Shown: positions 4,715 to 18,802 of the stretch, one piece after another
How the letters are laid out: each line of letters starts with the position of its first letter
Numbering within the stretch: position 1 is the stretch's first letter
Assembly (NCBI GenBank): GCA_910579535.1
Contig: CAJTUR010000022.1
Span: 1 to 25,967, forward strand
Reading direction: 5' to 3'
Source: an uncultured Bacilli bacterium
GTDB taxonomy: Bacteria; Bacillota_I; Bacilli_A; RF39; UBA660
Length of the DNA stretch: 25,967 nucleotides
The notes under the pieces: generated by a model
Told to the model about the DNA's origin: nothing
Database searches by the model: none
What the model saw: only the letters and a program-made list of their open reading frames with translations
Made by a program: the position numbers and the translations under genes

Positions 4715-4743
4715 ATTATAACAAACTAAATTATTTTTATCAA
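4715..4743 (-). promoter_or_regulatory. Near-consensus sigma-A promoter for the 454-aa secreted protein
   Basis: The minus strand reads TTGATA-17 nt-TATAAT with TGT immediately upstream of the -10 (extended -10). The predicted leader is about 76 nt. Confidence 0.6.
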
Positions 4744-4780
4744 TACAAACTAATATCAAAATAGTTTCAAAATAAAACGA

Positions 4781-4811
4781 AATAAAAAAATGTAATAAAT
4801 TTTTATTACAT
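4781..4811 (-). terminator. Rho-independent terminator after dut
   Basis: Inverted repeat ATGTAATAAA / TTTATTACAT (4790-4811) is followed on the minus strand by TTTTTTTATT. It lies 12 nt after the dut stop. Confidence 0.5.
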
Positions 4812-4822
4812 TTCTAATAAAA

Positions 4823-5293
4823 TTACTTATCAGTAGTTCCAAATCCGCCTTTACGTACACCCTCAGCATGATCTTCATCGACAACTAAAAATTTTTGAAA
4901 AATAACTTGACCTATCACATCCCCTTTTTTTATTTCCAAATCATGATCTAAAATATTATAGTATTGAAAATAAAAATGCCCATCATTCGTTTCGTTTCCA
5001 TAATAATCTGCATCAATGATACCGATACTATTACTCATAACCAATCCTTTTTTAGGTCCACTACTTCGGTTCACTAAAATATAGTATTCATCATCCCCAC
5101 AATAAGCCTTTAAACCGGTTGGTATAAGCGTTGGTTTTCCTCCTAGTTGAAATGGCGGAATAACAATATCTTCTGCGGCCTCTACATCGTATCCAGCACT
5201 GTTTTTAGTCTTTCTAACTGGTAAATTTATCTCTTTATCTTCCCATCCTTTAGCAATTTCAAATCCTCGTTGTCTTAACATCGACAAGCACAT
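4823..5293 (-). CDS. dut: dUTP diphosphatase (trimeric dUTPase)
   Basis: Motifs SAGYDV, NSIGIIDADY and the C-terminal RKGGFGTTDK (motif V). The true start may be the ATG at 5281 (MLRQRGFE...), which overlaps the nrdG stop as ATGTTAA. Confidence 0.9.
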   Translation of the reverse strand: MCLSMLRQRGFEIAKGWEDKEINLPVRKTKNSAGYDVEAAEDIVIPPFQLGGKPTLIPTGLKAYCGDDEYYILVNRSSGPKKGLVMSNSIGIIDADYYGNETNDGHFYFQYYNILDHDLEIKKGDVIGQVIFQKFLVVDEDHAEGVRKGGFGTTDK

Positions 5294-5850
5294 CCTTCCA
5301 TAGTTACCTCTCCATTATTTTTTATTAAATCTTTATTATCAATATATAAAACTATTTCTCCCTTTTCTAAACTCTTTTTCACATCAATAATTCTTTGATT
5401 GCTACTTCCAACATATCGTACTTTTTCACTTGCTAATTTCAAAACAAATCTTCCTTCAAGTAAAACATCAATATTATTTAAAATATCTTTTAAATATTCA
5501 TCTGTTTCCATTTGCTCCATTAACTCTTCCCACGTATAACCTGTGTACGACCAAATAGTTTTAGTAGGATACAATTTTTTCACATTGGTGACTAAATCAC
5601 GAATCGTTTTTCTAGACTTTGGAAACAAGGGGTCGCCTCCTGATAAAGTAAGACCACTACACCAGTCTTTTTCAAGTTCTTGATATATTTCGTTGATAGC
5701 CTCATCATCAAAAGGAAGACCATCATTTTCATCCCAAGTTAACGCATTTTGACACGCTGGACAGTGATGCAAACACCCGCTAGTCCATAAAACTACACGT
5801 AGCCCTTCACCATTTAGCATATCCGCTTTTGTTATATTATGATACCTCAT
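5275..5850 (-). CDS. nrdG: Anaerobic ribonucleoside-triphosphate reductase activating protein (radical SAM)
   Basis: 191 aa with radical-SAM cluster motif GCLHHCPACQN (CxxxCxxC). It sits directly downstream of nrdD. The C-terminal tail ends EGCACRC. Confidence 0.9.
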   Translation of the reverse strand: MRYHNITKADMLNGEGLRVVLWTSGCLHHCPACQNALTWDENDGLPFDDEAINEIYQELEKDWCSGLTLSGGDPLFPKSRKTIRDLVTNVKKLYPTKTIWSYTGYTWEELMEQMETDEYLKDILNNIDVLLEGRFVLKLASEKVRYVGSSNQRIIDVKKSLEKGEIVLYIDNKDLIKNNGEVTMEGCACRC

Positions 5851-5858
5851 ATTGCCTC

Positions 5859-8015
5859 CTACATACTTTTTCTTTCTGATATTTCAATCATTTTAGCCTT
5901 GTTAAGTCTTGTATCGCCATGAACACGCGAATAAGACAAATACCCATTCATTCGATCAATTTTTGTTAAATCAGAACTTCCACACTTTGGACAGGTATCC
6001 ATATCAAGCTCTTCATGTCCACAATTATTACAATAAGATAAAGATAAGTTTACTCCTTCGTAGAAACCTTTTTCCATCGCTCTTTCAACATAAGTAATCA
6101 TAGCCTCTTTATTATAATTTAAATTATACCTGACATACTGAATCCTTCCTCCACGGAACAAATCCCAAAATCTTCCTTCTAAATCTTGTTTTTCAATACC
6201 TGTAATCTCTTCCCATACACCACAGTGGAAACTATTACTCACATATTCTCTTGAAGAAACACCTTCAATCACACCATATTTTTTTCTAAATTGCTCTACT
6301 TGCAAACCACATAAATTTTCCGCTGGCGTTCCATATATAGCATAAAGAATTTTATCTTCTTTTTTATATTCATTAATTTTACAATTAATGTATTTCATAA
6401 CTTCAATTGCAAAATCTCCATCCTCTACTAAAGATTTTCCATTATAAAGCATTTGTAATTCATTCAAAGCCGTTATTCCAAAAGAAGCCGTCGAAGCTTT
6501 TAAAAGAGGTTCAATACAATCTCCTGGTTTTAAGTTTCCTCCATAGAAACCTCCTTCACAATAAGCAAGAGGATTCGTACTGGCTTTTTTCTTACCTAAA
6601 TAATTATAAGTGCGAATATGGATTTTACGAATCATTTCTAAATAATAATCCAAAACTTCATAAAAATCTTTTTGTTCTTCACGAGCTTTTGCTAAAATCA
6701 TCGGTAAATGTAAAGATACCGCTCCAATATTAAATCGTCCAATAAAAACAGGTTTATCGTCTTTATCCGCGGGTTCCATTCCCCCTCTTTCAAAGTAAGG
6801 ACTTAAGAAAGCACGACACCCCATAGGACTAATCGCACGGCCATACTTTTTATACATATCTGGAACATAGCCTTCACCAGTTAATGAAAGATAATCAGGA
6901 TACATCGTTTTAGCACTACAATCAATGGCTTCTAAAAAATTCTCTCGCAAGCTTTTTCCTTCTCCGTGTAAATTTTTATCATAGAAAAAAACCAATTTAG
7001 GAAACAAAGTCGGTTTCTTGTGCCCTTCTTTTCCTTGACCTTTTTTATGTGTTTTAAGAATAATTTTAGCAATCATTTTTCCAAAACGAGAAGTATCAAT
7101 ACCAAAAGTAAACGTTACAAATGGATAATCTCCCCGCGAAGAACCAACACTATTCAATTTATATTCAATACCTTGATACCCTTGTTCACATTCTCTTTCT
7201 ACCTTTTTAAGAGCATACGCATTAGCCCCTTCACTATCGGCATCCTCACCCTTAATCTCTAAATATTCTTGATAATATTTCTTATAACTTTTCTCCGCAT
7301 AAGGCGCTAAAATCGTGTCTACTTCGGGAACGGTAAACCCACCATATTGCATTGCTGCAGTATTAATAATGACGTCTCCCATAACATCAAACGCTGTATC
7401 CAGTGTCTTTGGTTCGTTATACCATAAATTACCCATTTCGAATCCCCCATGCATAACATTACCAACATCACACAAACAGCAATTCATCGTATCTCTTCTT
7501 GCACTCATATCATGAACATAGATATACCCATCTTCACAAGCTTCAACTTCACTCGTTGTTAAGAAGAATTTCTTATACAGTTCTTTATTTAAAGACCCAT
7601 ACACCAAACTTCTTTGAGTAGAAACTAAAGCACTATCAGTATTGGAATTTTCTTTATCGCCAATATAATTAATGGCTTGAGCCTTTTTATAAACTTTATC
7701 TAAAATATGAACAAATTCCTTTTTATAATTACGATACTCACGATAACTTTTTGCAACCAAAGGATTCACTTTTTCTAAAGCCGCCTCAACACAATTATGG
7801 ATTTGTTGAACCTCAGGATTCGTTGTTTGAGTTTCTAGAAACTCTAAAACAATCGAAACAACTTCTTCTTCCGCTTGTGGTGTTAACTCTACCATCACTC
7901 TTTCAGCACTTTTTCGGATTGCCACTTTTATTTTCTCCGCATCAAAATCCTGTTGATTACCATTTCTTTTAATAATTTTAATCTTTTTTGCCAAATCTTT
8001 TTCTTTCTTATTCAT
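5859..8015 (-). CDS. nrdD: Anaerobic (class III) ribonucleoside-triphosphate reductase
   Basis: 718 aa with an N-terminal ATP-cone (IKIIKRNGNQQDFDAEKIKVAI). The C-terminal Zn ribbon is CNNCGHE...CPKCGS, followed by glycyl-radical motif RMNGYLSY. Confidence 0.95.
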   Translation of the reverse strand: MNKKEKDLAKKIKIIKRNGNQQDFDAEKIKVAIRKSAERVMVELTPQAEEEVVSIVLEFLETQTTNPEVQQIHNCVEAALEKVNPLVAKSYREYRNYKKEFVHILDKVYKKAQAINYIGDKENSNTDSALVSTQRSLVYGSLNKELYKKFFLTTSEVEACEDGYIYVHDMSARRDTMNCCLCDVGNVMHGGFEMGNLWYNEPKTLDTAFDVMGDVIINTAAMQYGGFTVPEVDTILAPYAEKSYKKYYQEYLEIKGEDADSEGANAYALKKVERECEQGYQGIEYKLNSVGSSRGDYPFVTFTFGIDTSRFGKMIAKIILKTHKKGQGKEGHKKPTLFPKLVFFYDKNLHGEGKSLRENFLEAIDCSAKTMYPDYLSLTGEGYVPDMYKKYGRAISPMGCRAFLSPYFERGGMEPADKDDKPVFIGRFNIGAVSLHLPMILAKAREEQKDFYEVLDYYLEMIRKIHIRTYNYLGKKKASTNPLAYCEGGFYGGNLKPGDCIEPLLKASTASFGITALNELQMLYNGKSLVEDGDFAIEVMKYINCKINEYKKEDKILYAIYGTPAENLCGLQVEQFRKKYGVIEGVSSREYVSNSFHCGVWEEITGIEKQDLEGRFWDLFRGGRIQYVRYNLNYNKEAMITYVERAMEKGFYEGVNLSLSYCNNCGHEELDMDTCPKCGSSDLTKIDRMNGYLSYSRVHGDTRLNKAKMIEISERKSM

Positions 8016-9628: not shown

Positions 9629-10579
9629 ATGAAAAATGTAAAAAGAACAAATGGTTTTATTGATTTAGATGAACTAGAAAAAGACTCAAATTTTAAAATA
9701 ATTCCTTGGCCAGAAGGAATAGATAATGAATACTGTTGCTCCAACGTTCAGTTTATTTTTTCTTATGAGGACGAAGAGTTTATTTATAAAACTCCTGAAT
9801 ATACATGTCAATGCTATTATGAATTAATTGCTGAAGAACTAGCACATGATTTTTCTATACCCACAGCTCACTATGATTTAGCTAAGTCACACGAATATGG
9901 GGAAGGTGTCATTTCAAAAAATTTTAAACTGCCAAATACAACTTACATTAGAGGAGACATAATTTTAAAAGATTATGTAAAAAATTGTTTATATAAAGAT
10001 AAGGTTCTAAACAATTTTGAAATTGAAAAAGAAACAGAAATCTATAATAATCTAGAAGCCATTTGGGGCTCTTTCGAATATCGATATCTTAATCACCCTA
10101 ATCGAATAGAAATCGTAAATAAATTAATGAGTCAATTGGTAGATATGTTTATTTTTGATACATTAACAGGACATAATGACCGTCACATCAAAAATTGGGG
10201 TATTGCTGAAAATAAAGATGAAATATTCTTACAACCTCTCTATGATAATGAATTCATTTTATTTAATGAAACCTATTTTTACTTTACTCCTCATACAGAA
10301 TCTAATAAAGGTTCTTACTTAAATTTCAATGAAGGATTAAAAAAATCACTTTCAGAATTTCTTAGTGTTTCTGATGATGAATTCATAGAAAGATTAAAAG
10401 AAAAAATCCCACTTATTACCAAGGAGAATATTGATAACATAATTTTAAGAATAGAAAAAAGAATCAAAGCACCTATTCCTAAAGGCATAAAAAAACAAGT
10501 CAGTACTAATTTTAAAAAAATAGAAATACTAGTAAAAACAGTGATATCTGAATACGAAGAAAATAAAAAAACAAGATAA
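9629..10579 (+). CDS. HipA-like Ser/Thr kinase core protein (HipA_C-type), paralog 1
   Basis: 316 aa with catalytic-loop motif FDTLTGHNDRHIKNWG (D-x-H-x-x-N) followed by QPLYDNE (Mg-binding Asp). An upstream ELIAEELAHDFSIPTAHYDLA segment is typical of HipA-family kinases. There is no HipA N-terminal coupling domain. Confidence 0.7.
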   Translation: MKNVKRTNGFIDLDELEKDSNFKIIPWPEGIDNEYCCSNVQFIFSYEDEEFIYKTPEYTCQCYYELIAEELAHDFSIPTAHYDLAKSHEYGEGVISKNFKLPNTTYIRGDIILKDYVKNCLYKDKVLNNFEIEKETEIYNNLEAIWGSFEYRYLNHPNRIEIVNKLMSQLVDMFIFDTLTGHNDRHIKNWGIAENKDEIFLQPLYDNEFILFNETYFYFTPHTESNKGSYLNFNEGLKKSLSEFLSVSDDEFIERLKEKIPLITKENIDNIILRIEKRIKAPIPKGIKKQVSTNFKKIEILVKTVISEYEENKKTR

Positions 10580-10614
10580 TCTTTTACTTTCTCCTAAATA
10601 AAAGATTTTGTATT
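10579..10614 (+). terminator. Rho-independent terminator between the two HipA-like genes
   Basis: ATCTTTTA-12 nt-TAAAAGAT (10579-10606) is followed by TTTGTATTCATTTT. Confidence 0.45.
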
Positions 10615-10621
10615 CATTTTA

Positions 10622-10630
10622 TGTTAAAAT
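10622..10630 (+). promoter_or_regulatory. Extended -10 (TGTTAAAAT) upstream of HipA-like paralog 2
   Basis: It has the same sequence context as the paralog 1 promoter. Confidence 0.45.
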
Positions 10631-10653
10631 AAAAAAAGAAAGCTGTGACTATT

Positions 10654-11610
10654 ATGAAAAATGTAAAAAGAACAAATGGTTTTATTAATTTAGATGAGCT
10701 CGCTAATGACCCAAGCTTTAGAATGATTCCTTGGCGTAATAATGAATCAATGGTAGAAGAATTTGGCCATTCTCATATTAAATACATCTTTTATTACAAC
10801 AATGAAATCTATATTTACAAAACTCCTGATTATACACACCAATGTTATTATGAATTAATTGCTGAAGAACTGGCACACGATTTTTCTATACCTACCACTC
10901 ACTATGATTTAGCCTATAAATCTGGAGAGGGCAAAGGTGTTATTTCTAAAAATTTTAAACTTGCCAATCATAATTATACAAAAGGTTACGACCTCTTAAA
11001 AGATTATGTAAAAAATTGTTTATACAAAAATAAAAATATAACAGATTTTGATACAGATGAAGAAATAGAAAAATACAATTGTCTAGAAGGAGTATGGGCC
11101 GCCTTTGAGTATCGTTATCTTAGCCACCCTAATCGAATAGAAATCGTAAATAAATTAATGAGTCAATTAGTAGATATTTTTATCTTTGATGTATTAACAG
11201 GACAAACCGACCGTCACGAAGAAAATTGGGGTATTGTCGAAAACGACGAAGAAATTTTTTTACAGCCCCTATTTGATAATGATAGACTTTTATATATGGA
11301 CAATGATTTTTGCTTTAGTACTCAGACAGACAATCACATTCATTATTCTTTAAAATTCACTCAAGGAATAGAAAAACTCCTTCATGATTTTCTAAGCGTT
11401 TCATCTGCAGAATTTATAGAAAAATTGAAATCAAAAATACCTCTAATTTCAAAAGAAAATATAGAAAAAGTATTTTTAAGAATGGAAGAAAGAATCGAAT
11501 TTGCTGTTCCTTCACATATAAAAGAAAAAGTTTACGCTAATTTTGAAACTATAAAAGCAATTGTAAAAACAGCATTATCGGAATATGAAGAAAAAAGAAT
11601 TACAAGATAA
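10654..11610 (+). CDS. HipA-like Ser/Thr kinase core protein (HipA_C-type), paralog 2
   Basis: Motifs FDVLTGQTDRHEENWG and QPLFDND. The ATG at 10654 gives MKNVKRTNGF, identical to the paralog 1 start. The GTG at 10645 in the ORF track is unlikely. Confidence 0.7.
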   Translation: MKNVKRTNGFINLDELANDPSFRMIPWRNNESMVEEFGHSHIKYIFYYNNEIYIYKTPDYTHQCYYELIAEELAHDFSIPTTHYDLAYKSGEGKGVISKNFKLANHNYTKGYDLLKDYVKNCLYKNKNITDFDTDEEIEKYNCLEGVWAAFEYRYLSHPNRIEIVNKLMSQLVDIFIFDVLTGQTDRHEENWGIVENDEEIFLQPLFDNDRLLYMDNDFCFSTQTDNHIHYSLKFTQGIEKLLHDFLSVSSAEFIEKLKSKIPLISKENIEKVFLRMEERIEFAVPSHIKEKVYANFETIKAIVKTALSEYEEKRITR

Positions 11611-12135: not shown

Positions 12136-13455
12136 TTATCTTTCTTTTAAAGATTTAAATATTTTTTTCCATAAATCTTGACTGGAATAATTTAAAATAC
12201 CCACTTTATAAATACGAAGTCCAAAATGGAATAATAAGTAGGTGACAACACCACATATAAGAGTAGATAAAGCAAGCTCAAAGATGGATATCTGACCGAG
12301 TAGGAAAATCACAGGGGCGATTAAGAAAGAAAGCATAGGTATATAAGCCATCACTTTTACAAATAGCGCACCTTCAAAAGCCGAAGCCATAATGGCAATA
12401 TAGTAGCCTACTAATAAAATAATCATTAAAGGGGTTTGAAGTTGTTGATAGTCTTCAATATTAGTAGTCATTGAAGCAAGAACTCCCGCAAGTGTTGCAT
12501 AGGCAAGAAAACTAAATAAGAAAAGTAAAATAATAAAAGGCAACCCTTGAATTAATAAATCAAGTACTCCTGTATTCTTAACGGTATCAAGTGTCTCCGT
12601 AATAAATCCTGAAACATCACTATTCATTCCCCCAAGTATCGAAGCACCAAGTAGCTTTCGAACAACAAAAGCAATGAGCACATCAACAAATAATACCAAC
12701 GCCTGAATTAAAACAAAAGCCGTAGATGCAATAATCTTTGATGAAAAATGAACCTTTGGTGAAACATTGGAAATAATAATCTCCATACTTCTTGTTGATT
12801 TCTCATCATTAATTTCAGCACCAATCATCTGAGTTAACATCGTAATAAGTAAGAAGAAAGGAACAATCATAACCACGATAAGACCCGATGAAACAATGTC
12901 TTTCCCTTCAGCATTCGAGTCAAGTTCTGGATTAGTCACATTTTTTTGTATCGATACATTACTTGTCAAGGCTTGTATGTCTTCTTCACTCATTCCACTA
13001 TGTTGCAAAACATAAGCTGACTTCACTTGATTTAAGCTGTTTTGAAAGAGTTGTTCTGTTAAGGTATCAATTGGATCAAAACTAATCACATCAGCTTTAA
13101 TATATTCTAAATCAGAAGATTGAATAGTTAAAATAATGTCTTCTTTTTCTTTTATTTCTTCTTTTAATTCTTCTATATTTTTAGTCGTATTCTCCAGTTC
13201 ATAATTTCCTAAATCTTCTAATTTTTCAGATAAAGCCTTAAAATTAGTTTCAAAAAGAGAATAAGCATTTGCATCATCTACCACATAAACTTTCGTTACA
13301 TTTTGAAAATCCCCACCAAAAAAACTAATAATACGATCAACATTAATAATACCAATTAATAAAACCAAAATTAAAATGTTTGCCACTTTAAACCATTTGG
13401 TATCTAATTTTTTCTTAAGACTTTGTTTAACTAAAAATTTTAGTTTATTCTTCAT
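12136..13455 (-). CDS. ABC-2 type transporter permease (YhaP/NatB-like)
   Basis: One N-terminal TM helix, a large extracytoplasmic loop, then 5-6 C-terminal TM helices. The ATG at 13455 (SD AGGTG, 6 nt) overlaps the ATPase stop, indicating translational coupling. Confidence 0.85.
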   Translation of the reverse strand: MKNKLKFLVKQSLKKKLDTKWFKVANILILVLLIGIINVDRIISFFGGDFQNVTKVYVVDDANAYSLFETNFKALSEKLEDLGNYELENTTKNIEELKEEIKEKEDIILTIQSSDLEYIKADVISFDPIDTLTEQLFQNSLNQVKSAYVLQHSGMSEEDIQALTSNVSIQKNVTNPELDSNAEGKDIVSSGLIVVMIVPFFLLITMLTQMIGAEINDEKSTRSMEIIISNVSPKVHFSSKIIASTAFVLIQALVLFVDVLIAFVVRKLLGASILGGMNSDVSGFITETLDTVKNTGVLDLLIQGLPFIILLFLFSFLAYATLAGVLASMTTNIEDYQQLQTPLMIILLVGYYIAIMASAFEGALFVKVMAYIPMLSFLIAPVIFLLGQISIFELALSTLICGVVTYLLFHFGLRIYKVGILNYSSQDLWKKIFKSLKER

Positions 13456-14347
13456 AAGAAGCACCTACTTTCTCTAAGAAAATTTCATTAAGTGTAGCAT
13501 CTTCAACAGCAAATTTAGTTACATTTTTACAATTTTTAATAAAATCAAAAACATCACTAACATTCTCATCACTACTTATTTTTACTACGATTTCATTTTC
13601 GTTTTGTATAACTTCTAGTACTCCACTTACTTTTTGCAATTTTGTTATGTCGACCTCATCACAAACAATATGAATATTTTTCTTTCGATATTCTTTTTTT
13701 ATTTGTTTTAATTCTCCCGATAAGACACTTTTTCCTTTAACCAAAACAACTAACTTTTCGCAAAACATCTCAACGTGTTCCATTCTATGCGATGAAAAAA
13801 TAATACTTGTTCCCTGTTTTTTTAGCTTTTTAATCACATCCATAAACATTTGAACATTAATAGGATCTAAACCAGAAAAAGGCTCATCCAATATTAAAAG
13901 TTTCGGTTCATTAATAATGGCGGTTATAAATTGTACTTTCTGTTGATTTCCTTTAGAAAGTTCTTTTATTTTTCGATCTTTATACTCAGTAATGTGAAAA
14001 TAATTAAGCCACTCATCAAGTTTTTCTACTATTTCTTTTTCTTCCATTCCTTTTAAGATACCATAAAAGATAACTTGTTCTTTAACCGTTAACTTAGTTA
14101 ATAAACTTCTTTCTTCTGTTAAAAAACCCAATTTATTTGTCAAATCATAATTTATAGGTTGTCCATCAATCGTAATGGTTCCACTACTTATATCTAGAAG
14201 TCCATTAATCATTCGAAACGTGGTCGTTTTACCAGCACCATTTACGCCAAGTAACCCAAAAATTTCTCCATCTTTAACGGTAAAAGATAGATCATCTACA
14301 GCTTTATTCTCTCCATAATATTTTGTTACGTGTTCTACTTTTAGCAT
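13445..14347 (-). CDS. ABC transporter ATP-binding protein (YhaQ/NatA-like, with C-terminal accessory domain)
   Basis: Walker A GVNGAGKTT, signature LSKGNQQK, Walker B LLILDEP and H-loop SSHRM. SD AAGGGAG precedes the start. Confidence 0.9.
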   Translation of the reverse strand: MLKVEHVTKYYGENKAVDDLSFTVKDGEIFGLLGVNGAGKTTTFRMINGLLDISSGTITIDGQPINYDLTNKLGFLTEERSLLTKLTVKEQVIFYGILKGMEEKEIVEKLDEWLNYFHITEYKDRKIKELSKGNQQKVQFITAIINEPKLLILDEPFSGLDPINVQMFMDVIKKLKKQGTSIIFSSHRMEHVEMFCEKLVVLVKGKSVLSGELKQIKKEYRKKNIHIVCDEVDITKLQKVSGVLEVIQNENEIVVKISSDENVSDVFDFIKNCKNVTKFAVEDATLNEIFLEKVGASYEE

Positions 14348-14410
14348 TTTTTTACACTCTCCCTTAACATTGTAACACTTCTATTCCTAAGAAACAATTT
14401 TTATATTTAA

Positions 14411-14441
14411 ATTATACCCCCCCCCCACTCAATTTTGTCAA
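14411..14441 (-). promoter_or_regulatory. Consensus sigma-A promoter (TTGACA / TATAAT) with a 19-nt spacer containing a G10 tract, upstream of the ABC operon
   Basis: The minus strand reads TTGACA AAATTGAGTGGGGGGGGGG TATAAT. The -35 overlaps the TGA stop of the upstream gene, and an A-rich tract lies immediately upstream (UP-like). Confidence 0.6.
14417..14426. repeat. C10/G10 homopolymer tract
   Basis: Ten consecutive C on the plus strand in a window where I saw no other G or C run longer than about 5. Confidence 0.95.
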
Positions 14442-15676
14442 ATCTTTCTTCTTTTTTTTCGTTTTCTTTTTTTTAACTTACAAATCGAAAAAAGACAGAT
14501 AATCAAAAAAACAAGGACGATTCCCATAATTTTATAATCCGTATAATTATACTTAATTTCACGATTTAAATAAACATCATAAGAATAAAGAAGATTTTCT
14601 TTATAAAACACCTTTACTTTACCAAGAAAATCATTTTGTTTTATCTTTCGATTTAGGACTTCTATACCTTCATATTGATAAGAAAAATCCTTTATCTCTT
14701 TTTCTAAATAAAACGAAACATCTTCACTACTCTTAATAAAATAATCTTCTAAAGTTGCGTCTTGAACTTTTAAATGAGCAAGAACACGATCCTTTTCTAA
14801 AACATTTATATAATCATAATGTTCATTAAAATAATTATAAATTTCTAAAGAATCTACAATATGATTAGGAAAGCCATTTTGATACATTGAACCAGCAAGA
14901 ATCAATAAATACTCTACATTATCAAATTCATATAAACTTGATAAACAAAGCCCTGCATCTTTAGTAAAACCAGATTTGGAACCCTTTATTGATCCCACAT
15001 TTAGATGGTATTTTTCAGAGGGTCCAACTAAGGTACTATAAAGTTCTAAATAATTCGTCGTCTTATAATAACGCGTGGTATAAATAGTTTCAAACACTTC
15101 ATTTTGAAGAGCATAGAGAATCAACTTTTTTAAATCTTCTAAAGTTGAATAATTATTTTCATCATCTCTTCCTACAGGATTACTAAAATGAGTCGCATTC
15201 ATTCCTATTTTATCTTTTAATTCATTCATTAAAACCACAAAATTGTCAAGATTTCCACCAGTAAGTACAGCTAAGGCTTGGGCTGCTTCGACTCCACTTG
15301 GAAGAAGTGTTCCATAAAGTAAATCTCGAATGGTAACTTTTTCATTCATTTTAAATCCAGCCATTGCATAGCCATTTGTATTATAGAAGGCTTCTTTAGG
15401 AATAGTAACGATTTTATCTAAATCTTCATTGTTTTCAATCGCTACCATTGCCGTCATTATTTTTGTTAAACTCGCAATCGAAATTTTATCTTCATAGCCT
15501 TTTTGATAAACAACTTTTTCATCTTTTAAATTATAAAGCAAAAGATGATTAGTTTTTACATCTAAATTTAAGTTTTCTAAATTAAAATAATCGTATTCGC
15601 TTGCTTTCGCCCAAACATTAGAGAGTAATATTAAACTAAAAAACAAGTAAACGATTAAAAATCCTATTTTTTTCAT
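14438..15676 (-). CDS. Serine-type D-Ala-D-Ala carboxypeptidase (S11, PBP5/DacB-like) with C-terminal TM anchor
   Basis: It has a signal peptide, SxxK motif SIASLTKIM and a KTG-type motif GSKSGFT. The SxN position reads PSGVEAA (Asn replaced by Val). The C-terminus is a TM helix plus KLKKRKRKKRRKI. Confidence 0.8.
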   Translation of the reverse strand: MKKIGFLIVYLFFSLILLSNVWAKASEYDYFNLENLNLDVKTNHLLLYNLKDEKVVYQKGYEDKISIASLTKIMTAMVAIENNEDLDKIVTIPKEAFYNTNGYAMAGFKMNEKVTIRDLLYGTLLPSGVEAAQALAVLTGGNLDNFVVLMNELKDKIGMNATHFSNPVGRDDENNYSTLEDLKKLILYALQNEVFETIYTTRYYKTTNYLELYSTLVGPSEKYHLNVGSIKGSKSGFTKDAGLCLSSLYEFDNVEYLLILAGSMYQNGFPNHIVDSLEIYNYFNEHYDYINVLEKDRVLAHLKVQDATLEDYFIKSSEDVSFYLEKEIKDFSYQYEGIEVLNRKIKQNDFLGKVKVFYKENLLYSYDVYLNREIKYNYTDYKIMGIVLVFLIICLFSICKLKKRKRKKRRKI

Positions 15677-18725: not shown

Positions 18726-18802
18726 TGGTAGGATGTACGGGTTTCGAACCCGTGAATACCACCTTGAGAGGGTGGCGTGTTAAACCCCTTCACCAACATC
18801 CC
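18726..18802 (-). tRNA. tRNA-Glu (anticodon CUC), CCA encoded
   Basis: The minus strand reads GGGATGTTGGTGAAGGGGTTTAACACGCCACCCTCTCAAGGTGGTATTCACGGGTTCGAAACCCGTACATCCTACCA. It folds as a cloverleaf with the 3-bp D stem typical of tRNA-Glu, anticodon loop CU-CUC-AA and T-loop GGTTCGAAACC. The first acceptor pair is G1-U72. Confidence 0.85.

Follow-up and report, generated by a model that had tools for sequence, protein, structure and literature searches.

A promoter whose -35 and -10 hexamers both match the sigma-A consensus exactly, and whose spacer includes an uninterrupted run of ten G residues, raises the question of what such a homopolymer does at this site. The promoter, here termed P1, lies on the minus strand of a 25,967-nt stretch of DNA (contig CAJTUR010000022.1, hereafter the window) from an uncultured Bacilli bacterium, upstream of an operon for an ATP-binding cassette (ABC) exporter of the ABC-2 type. 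An earlier note on this DNA, made from the sequence alone, had proposed a phase-variable switch. Our comparative analysis of same-species contigs, related lineages and viral contigs supports the interpretation, to which we assign a probability of roughly 65%, that P1 is a sigma-A-type promoter of the exporter operon and that its hypermutable G tract acts as a slippage switch by determining the spacing.

The architecture of P1 can be read off the minus strand just as the earlier note had claimed: the two exact consensus hexamers enclose a 19-nt spacer that is composed of AAATTGAGT and G10 (Table 1). P1 is the single TTGACA-N15-21-TATAAT match in the window, and shuffled sequences give 0.11 matches. 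Base composition does not explain the tract, which is the sole G or C run longer than 5 nt in 25,967 nt of about 28% GC, where the expectation under independent, identically distributed bases is ~9e-4. The presence of a simple-sequence repeat between recognisable -35 and -10 hexamers, both in the window and in the orthologous promoters, is the hallmark of the spacer-length class of phase-variable promoters, and with ten residues the tract falls within the range of hypermutable G/C runs (about 8 nt or more). No open reading frame (ORF) of at least 20 aa runs across the G tract in the window, and a frameshift switch was therefore ruled out for this tract. Folding of the P1 leader is not significant (z = -0.88), and the search of the window against Rfam retrieved a tRNA only, so that a riboswitch or attenuator for the operon was rejected. 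The overlap of the -35 hexamer with the TGA stop of the upstream carboxypeptidase gene, which ends at 14438 inside TTGACA, is real, as are the Shine-Dalgarno (SD) sequence AAGGGAG and the overlapping ATPase and permease ORFs; the leader would have ~57 nt if counted from a predicted start at ~14404. The A-rich stretch upstream of the -35 that had been called UP-like is present, but it encodes the Lys/Arg-rich C-terminal tail of the carboxypeptidase, which already explains its composition.

The tract recurs in 12 further contigs of the window species that were retrieved by exact-protein look-ups among metagenome-assembled genomes (MAGs) of NCBI, ENA assemblies and Logan assemblies. Nine of them have G10 and one has G9 (L002), while two ENA scaffolds (L003, L087) contain a gap of 13 N inside the tract; the Logan assembly of the L087 run reads G10. 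The same-species contigs form two strain groups with ~99.1% identity, and the tract is the only indel in their conserved part. The difference between L001 and L002 over 6.9 kb amounts to one G plus three single-nucleotide polymorphisms (SNPs). The nearest named relatives of the host lineage are Candidatus genera in the "Bacilli incertae sedis". The earlier note had asked for an assembly or sequencing error to be excluded, and the recurrence of the tract in three assembly sources does so. Poly-G is a known artefact of two-colour Illumina chemistry, and poly-C-rich junk ends are fused exactly at the G tract in two contigs (L094, positions 1-90; L165, positions 1-130), where two-colour-chemistry poly-G reads have most likely been assembled onto the real tract. 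The probability that the tract itself is an artefact is nevertheless negligible, because more than 60 contigs, drawn from three assembly sources and many runs, reproduce it internally and between defined flanks.

The design is conserved far beyond the window species. A profile search of genome contigs with the ATPase alignment did not retrieve the window species itself (best hit 77%) and detected the tract before the ABC operon in none of 80 loci from more distant species (at most 77% identity), which first suggested a species-specific oddity; this view was overturned by exact-protein look-ups of closer relatives. The ATPase has numerous metagenomic homologues, and for eight of the nine that were looked up (79-85% identical) the operon is preceded by a G tract with TATAAT or TACAAT immediately behind it. 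Altogether, the G~10-TATAAT core precedes the orthologous operon in ten ATPase lineages (79-100% identical), and the TTG of the -35 is located exactly 12 nt ahead of the first G wherever the contig reaches that far, whereas the contigs of P0003 and P0004 start at the tract. An alignment of the intergenic region from eight lineages has a mean column identity of 51%, and its invariant parts are the G run, the TA-AAT of P1 and the GTG-TA-AAT of a second, proximal promoter element, P2. The genes upstream of the promoter differ between lineages (carboxypeptidase gene dac, DUF4932, PedC-like, an end resembling an insertion sequence (IS), and others), thus indicating that the promoter travels with the operon. 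In the neighbour-joining tree of the ATPase, the tract-bearing lineages form one clade, whose MAGs stem from several studies of the gut of animals and humans, and the outgroups have no tract. P0007, the sole tract-less member, is nested inside the clade and has a terminator plus TGCTATACT, which is similar to the P2 element. This distribution is most simply explained if the tract arose once, was then maintained for a long time and was lost a single time.

When JGI metagenome contigs were scanned with a DNA pattern of the window promoter, the only hit was L006, which has no G tract; the species is seemingly unrepresented there. The match in L006 (2835-2868, Ga0310343_10036780) is unrelated, reads TTGACAAAATTGAGT…TATAATTTAAAT with an 18-nt spacer, and is taken as a chance or convergent match.

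The length of the tract is polymorphic between samples. Our tally comprises fully spanned tracts only, and its counts are assemblies rather than independent mutation events. Behind a canonical -35 we counted G10 in 47 promoters, G9 in one, G11 in four and an interrupted G3AG8 in two (n=54), the tract being uninterrupted in 52 of the 54. Where the -35 is replaced by other sequence, G10 was found six times, G9 twice, G7 twice and G6 once, with identical flanks. Tracts shorter than ten thus occur in 1/54 canonical promoters as opposed to 5/11 of those without the -35; the Fisher test (p=3e-4) is indicative only, because the samples are not phylogenetically independent. Variation is observed between near-identical strains, namely, G9/G10 in the window species and G10/G11, G9/G10 and G6/7/9/10 in sister lineages. 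Among the 1-nt indel sites the tract is the sole recurrent one, being variable in four of the eight within-lineage groups. A/T runs of 8-9 nt do not vary in the within-lineage alignments, which contain just two other kinds of 1-nt indel. Many contigs also begin or stop in or beside tracts (L094, L110, L112, L119-L121, L165, L166, L008, L051), which, like the N-gaps, would be an indirect sign of length heterogeneity within a population. The comparison of tract lengths among strains and MAGs, which the earlier note had set as a check, was accordingly positive: lengths vary while the flanks stay constant. The adjoining sequence is far more stable in length than the tract, which some influence keeps at ten residues as long as a -35 is present. 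The strength of the G10 mode argues for selection on length as well as mutability, and the shortening of the tract where the -35 has been lost points to length selection in its presence.

Two peculiarities of individual lineages concern the tract itself. In L159 (~1430-1441) and L163 (~970-981) of the P0050 lineage, the interrupted tract GGGAGGGGGGGG has 12 nt in total and results in a 21-nt spacer; it may represent a stabilised, "locked-off" allele. In the P0024 lineage (L132-L141, ~1418-1463), a carboxypeptidase ORF of 416 aa nominally crosses promoter and tract, so that tract length would alter the C-terminal tail of the carboxypeptidase in some strains. The size difference between 416 and 401 aa within this lineage was considered as a tract effect and rejected, since a G-to-T SNP creates the earlier stop.

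Comparable tracts are over-represented in the wider clade. The lengths of G/C runs are bimodal across 450 kb of sequence from 80 related species, with 6, 7 and 8 nt occurring four, two and one times, and runs of 9-10 nt eight times against 0.017 expected; for the window species itself the census covers 26 kb with one tract. Such an excess of long G/C tracts in a separate length class, linked to genes for surface or secreted proteins and including 5'-intragenic positions, is what characterises a phasome. One example is L028, where spacer tracts with the pattern TTGACT/TTGACA-N9-G10-TATGAT precede each of two tandem paralogues, which encode small secreted proteins and directly follow the ABC permease gene. 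A second example is L023, where the tract-bearing promoter spacer belongs to a gene for a pseudouridine synthase and a proximal TGTTATAAT again follows. In the IMG/VR contigs L142 (9885-10328) and L143 (13061-13252), TTGACA-N9-G10-TATAAT stands right after a terminator and before an N_methyl pilin-like gene; its ATG follows 6-7 nt past the -10, which suggests a leaderless mRNA. L054 (5332-5410) has G10 upstream of a pilin-like gene starting MKKKGFTLIEL, with hexamers that are not clear. Tracts of G9-G10 are further located inside a signal-peptide coding region (…L-G-G-G…) beside the ABC operon (L008, 4825-4834; L014, 4822-4830; L051, 5-13; L107-L111 of the P0016 lineage, ~190 nt past the permease stop), and contigs or scaffolds repeatedly terminate at these sites. 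The signal-peptide tracts look like frameshift-type switches. In viral contigs, a less constrained scan detected poly-G promoters with perfect hexamers in DNA of 33-63% GC, their spacers measuring 14, 17, 17, 19, 19, 21 and 21 nt; given this range, no single spacing is preserved in general. We propose that the window tract belongs to a wider poly-G contingency set in this clade of uncultured gut Bacilli.

Some of these loci have further features of their own. The L028 paralogues (4740-5891, an uncultured Bacilli MAG from the Hadza) read MKK.IKSRIFLVII...YKATDV.Y.ASDGTSMNVNEALNELY and have no Pfam match; the tandem copies are 718 nt apart, each with its own promoter and with identical up- and downstream sequence. 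The sequence CTTTAAG(C/T)TTACCACT(A/G)CA is present in L098-L102 (positions 1-60) and L023 (~1650-1670), 50-60 nt before two unrelated poly-G promoters. It is preceded by a doubled TTGTCTACT in L098, five contigs terminate in it, and its appearance is that of one end of an element present in several copies, for example an IS. The breaks of L098-L102 ~200 nt upstream were considered as tract breaks and rejected, since they are actually at the end of this IS-like repeat further upstream.

The strong mode at ten residues could alternatively reflect a selected cis element of fixed length, bound by a protein or required for DNA structure, in a promoter that works at 19 nt, with single-nucleotide deviations as mere noise. 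Such an element would account for the 47 of 54 canonical promoters with G10, which stem from eight lineages and always combine with N9 to 19 nt. The noise could be sought in the artefactual poly-C/G contig ends at the tract and in the two N-gap scaffolds, which come from one assembly series and in one case were read as G10 by the Logan assembly of the same run. However, G6, G7, G9 and G10 with identical flanks occur where the -35 is missing, two-colour artefacts would lengthen rather than shorten a tract, and non-modal lengths arise separately in five lineages and across NCBI, ENA and Logan assemblies. A fixed length is also at odds with the similar tracts in 5' coding regions, where frameshifting alone makes sense, and with the viral perfect-hexamer spacers of 14-21 nt, among which no one spacing is kept. 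We therefore regard a fixed-length element as unlikely.

In three lineages, the DNA upstream of an identical ATPase is wholly different in some contigs, with the divergence setting in a few nt ahead of the tract. A 21-nt sequence, "module 2" (TTGGGTATAAGCTCCATTCTA and variants), is common to most of the swapped contexts, which have no -35 at the right distance. Module 2 takes the place of the -35 and N9 immediately ahead of the tract, and it includes GGGTATAAG, a look-alike of the junction between tract and -10. It occurs in three contexts from two lineages, with LysR, MatE and NUDIX as neighbouring genes and an identical ATPase; a fourth context, L106, shares only CCATTC beside the tract, likewise at ~1400-1440 of its contig. 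A scan of the viral contigs for module 2 found nothing. These exchanges could mean that the tract chiefly serves rearrangement or insertion, as a breakpoint or target beside which upstream DNA is swapped, and that any effect on the promoter is secondary. The three or four upstream contexts of identical ATPases, diverging only a few nt from the G run, and the sharing of module 2 by three contexts from two lineages are in line with such a role. The breaks fall upstream of the tract and not within it, though, and the canonical -35 is kept in most lineages and samples. Module 2 is missing from the scanned viral contigs, and a breakpoint leaves the conserved N9 and hexamers unexplained. This makes a primary role in rearrangement very improbable.

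The proximal element P2 was underestimated by the earlier note, which had taken TGTTACAAT merely for a weaker element: it does not vary among the eight aligned lineages, and the tract-less clade member has TGnTATACT as a similar element. A TG one base before a good -10, kept among relatives, has the appearance of an extended -10 promoter, and the -35 position of P2 is partly conserved (TTTCTA) in other lineages. P2 is probably the basal promoter of the operon. In the window its -10 is separated from the SD by just 3 nt (GTT), and a 2-column gap opens in the window row of the alignment (14361-14377). At this distance the first nucleotide of a P2 transcript would fall within the SD or at its border, and the window species could lean more on P1.

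The conservation of P2 also bears on the question whether P1 is used at all. The operon might be transcribed from P2, by read-through from the carboxypeptidase gene or by both, with P1 unused in any state and its tract a tolerated mutational oddity. This would fit the invariant extended -10 of P2 in the aligned lineages and the similar element where the tract is absent, the lack of a terminator-like site between the carboxypeptidase gene and the ABC operon, and the unfavourable modal spacing of 19 nt. A neutral G10 together with two consensus hexamers, on the other hand, would not survive ~20% divergence of the ATPase and repeated changes of the upstream gene, and the shortening of the tract where the -35 is lost implies length selection when it is present. 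An idle P1 is hence improbable.

Table 1. Promoter elements, genes and related sequences at the exporter locus (window positions unless stated otherwise)
Feature	Position	Strand	Remarks
P1 -35 hexamer TTGACA	14441-14436	minus	overlaps the TGA stop of the carboxypeptidase gene
P1 spacer, non-repeat part, 9 nt, AAATTGAGT	14435-14427	minus	always 9 nt in orthologous promoters, sequence variable
G10 homopolymer (C10 on the plus strand)	14426-14417	minus	proposed slippage-prone tract setting the -35/-10 spacing
P1 -10 hexamer TATAAT	14416-14411	minus	directly abuts the G run; TA-AAT invariant in the 8-lineage alignment
P2 weak -35-like TTGTTT	14397-14392	minus	17 nt before TACAAT; putative -35
P2 extended -10 TGtTACAAT (TGTTACAAT)	14377-14369	minus	GTG-TA-AAT invariant in 8 aligned lineages
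Shine-Dalgarno sequence AAGGGAG of the ATPase gene	14365-14359	minus	aligns with AGGAGG in relatives
ABC-2-type transporter ATPase, 300 aa, ABC_tran + DrrA1-3_C	13445-14347	minus	ATG at 14347
ABC-2 permease (ABC2_membrane_3)	12136-13464	minus	overlaps the ATPase stop; start of the gene callers at 13455 (439 aa)
Peptidase_S11 D-Ala-D-Ala carboxypeptidase gene (dac)	14438-15676	minus	upstream of the ABC operon
P0006 promoter			TTGACA-AATCTAGTC
P0016 promoter			TTGCTT-TTTTAATTC
P0014 promoter			TTGACA-AATTGTGTC
P0035 promoter			TTGACA-AACACATTC
P0024 promoter			TTGACA-AATACCTTC
P0044 promoter			TTGCCA-TTTGGCATC
P0050 promoter			TTGCAA-TTTTGCGTC
Module 2 in L123/L125/L130/L131, L150/L157, L154-L156/L158	~1400-1440 in each contig

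The transporter matches known proteins at the family level only (ABC_tran, DrrA1-3_C, ABC2_membrane_3), its score for the drrA subfamily being below the cutoff. For the permease, no NCBIfam model matched and no PDB relative was found. Bacillus-group relatives are ~50% identical. The earlier label "NatAB/YhaQP-type" is not confirmed beyond the family level, and the safe name is "ABC-2 type exporter, substrate unknown". Elsewhere in the window, two tandem HipA_C-like genes (316 and 321 aa; 9629-11610, plus strand), which are ~75% identical to each other in DNA, constitute the most divergent region between the two strain groups of the window species. The sole Rfam match is a lone tRNA gene (18729-18802, minus strand).

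For the slippage switch, the following mode of action can be envisaged. Slipped-strand mispairing at replication would add or remove G residues. By analogy with known systems, G10 with a 19-nt spacer would be weak or off and one or two slips short of the on state, G9 with 18 nt intermediate, G8 with 17 nt strong, and G11 or more off. Each length would be heritable yet reversible, so that a population would always mix cells of differing exporter level. Transcription from the predicted P1 start at ~14404 would produce a 57-nt leader containing P2, and P2 (TGnTAyAAT, ~25-30 nt before the ATG) would provide basal expression together with possible read-through from the carboxypeptidase gene. As P2 is conserved, tract-free and probably basal, P1 would serve as a heritable volume control above this level and not as an absolute on/off switch. 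The phase-variable switch of the earlier note accordingly stands with respect to length variation, a design kept in ten lineages and similar tracts elsewhere, but a full on/off switch is doubtful with a likely basal P2. The shortening of tracts without a -35 would reflect a deletion bias, and selection against shorter, stronger alleles would park the tract at G10. The complete scenario remains tentative, and we rate it at somewhat below even odds: G10 as the shortest "off" length, only one slip away from "on", a countered deletion bias, and a clade-wide poly-G contingency system in which TTG-N12-G10-TATAAT has long been kept before the exporter and similar tracts occur before pilin-like and secreted-protein genes.

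Several points weigh against a slippage switch. The G10 consensus in 47/54 canonical promoters is compatible with a selected fixed-length element too, and P2 alone could drive the operon. If the modal 19-nt spacer is "off", the promoter is silent in most of the sampled populations, and if the geometry of poly-G shifts the spacing optimum, the assignment of on and off would be reversed. Some of the single-nucleotide length calls come from low-coverage Illumina assemblies, and the proneness of the tract to sequencing artefacts is evident from the poly-C/G junk of L094 and L165. The dominance of one length is no argument against switching, because in a near-clonal treponeme population ~81% have one tract length and minorities with one G more or less coexist with it (PMC7864442).

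The design matches the known spacer-length class of phase-variable promoters exemplified by porA, tp0126 and vlp. In tp0126 of Treponema pallidum and porA of Neisseria meningitidis, poly-G is located between the -35 and the -10 and transcription is best at 17 nt, and for tprL G8 is active while G10 is near background (PMC7864442). The likeness to porA consists in a G homopolymer within a sigma-70-type spacer, whose length sets spacing and transcript level (PMC7864442). In contrast, porA encodes a porin of a Gram-negative pathogen, its modal lengths lie close to the 17-nt optimum, and a second promoter free of a tract is missing there, whereas the window locus has its mode at 19 nt, an ABC-2 exporter as target and a conserved proximal extended -10 promoter behind the first. 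The T. pallidum loci tp0126, tprL and tprE/G/J likewise have poly-G in the promoter (in tp0126 between the -35 and the -10) with one dominant length. They differ in belonging to a spirochaete pathogen with outer-membrane targets and in that switching was shown by fragment analysis and reporters, whereas the evidence presented here is comparative.

A counterpart for the wider set of tracts is the low-GC genome of Campylobacter jejuni, which has a distinct class of G8-G11 tracts with intragenic and intergenic contingency loci (PMC6321876, PMC3025981). The related gut Bacilli resemble it in their bimodal run lengths and 5'-intragenic tracts. The C. jejuni phasome consists mostly of intragenic frameshift switches, whereas the window tract is a promoter spacer in an uncultured gut commensal of the Gram-positive type. 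Graded tuning instead of strict on/off switching is a trait shared with the T-tract "rheostat" of sabA in Helicobacter pylori, where a promoter-proximal homopolymer grades expression (PMC4081817). The sabA tract differs in that it lies beside the -35 and acts via DNA geometry and regulator binding, not via the -35/-10 spacing. Among the Mollicutes, the vlp genes of Mycoplasma hyorhinis have a poly-A spacer and the lipoprotein P78 of M. fermentans is encoded in an ABC operon with a poly-A tract, both with high-frequency variation. These low-GC relatives of the Bacillota share the homopolymer in the promoter spacer (vlp) or in an ABC operon (P78), but their tracts are poly-A and their targets lipoproteins, while the poly-G described here is followed by a whole ATPase/permease operon.

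The present case differs from these systems in its host (uncultured low-GC gut Bacilli), in the ABC-2 exporter as target, in the presence of a second, conserved proximal promoter that has no tract, and in its stereotyped layout of N9+G10. Our literature search found nothing relevant on this phenomenon in RFN20, Erysipelotrichia or gut Firmicutes, nor did it reveal any previous account of a phasome driven by repeats in a commensal lineage of gut Firmicutes. To our knowledge, repeat-driven phase variation has been worked out almost wholly in pathogens, namely, Neisseria, Haemophilus, Campylobacter, Helicobacter, Treponema and the mycoplasmas, and the switches known so far from gut commensals are mostly DNA inversions.

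The locus provides a conserved and testable example in an abundant, uncultured gut lineage and, if true, a system discovered purely from metagenomes. There is also a practical warning, as poly-G tracts break assemblies and can be mis-called. TTG-N12-G~10-TATAAT is a simple signature that can be searched for in metagenomes, and tract length is readable from shotgun reads, so that existing metagenomes and metatranscriptomes could reveal shifts of expression state without cultivation. The states of the exporter, the pilin-like proteins and the surface proteins could thereby be followed in relation to host, diet, phage and antibiotic pressure.

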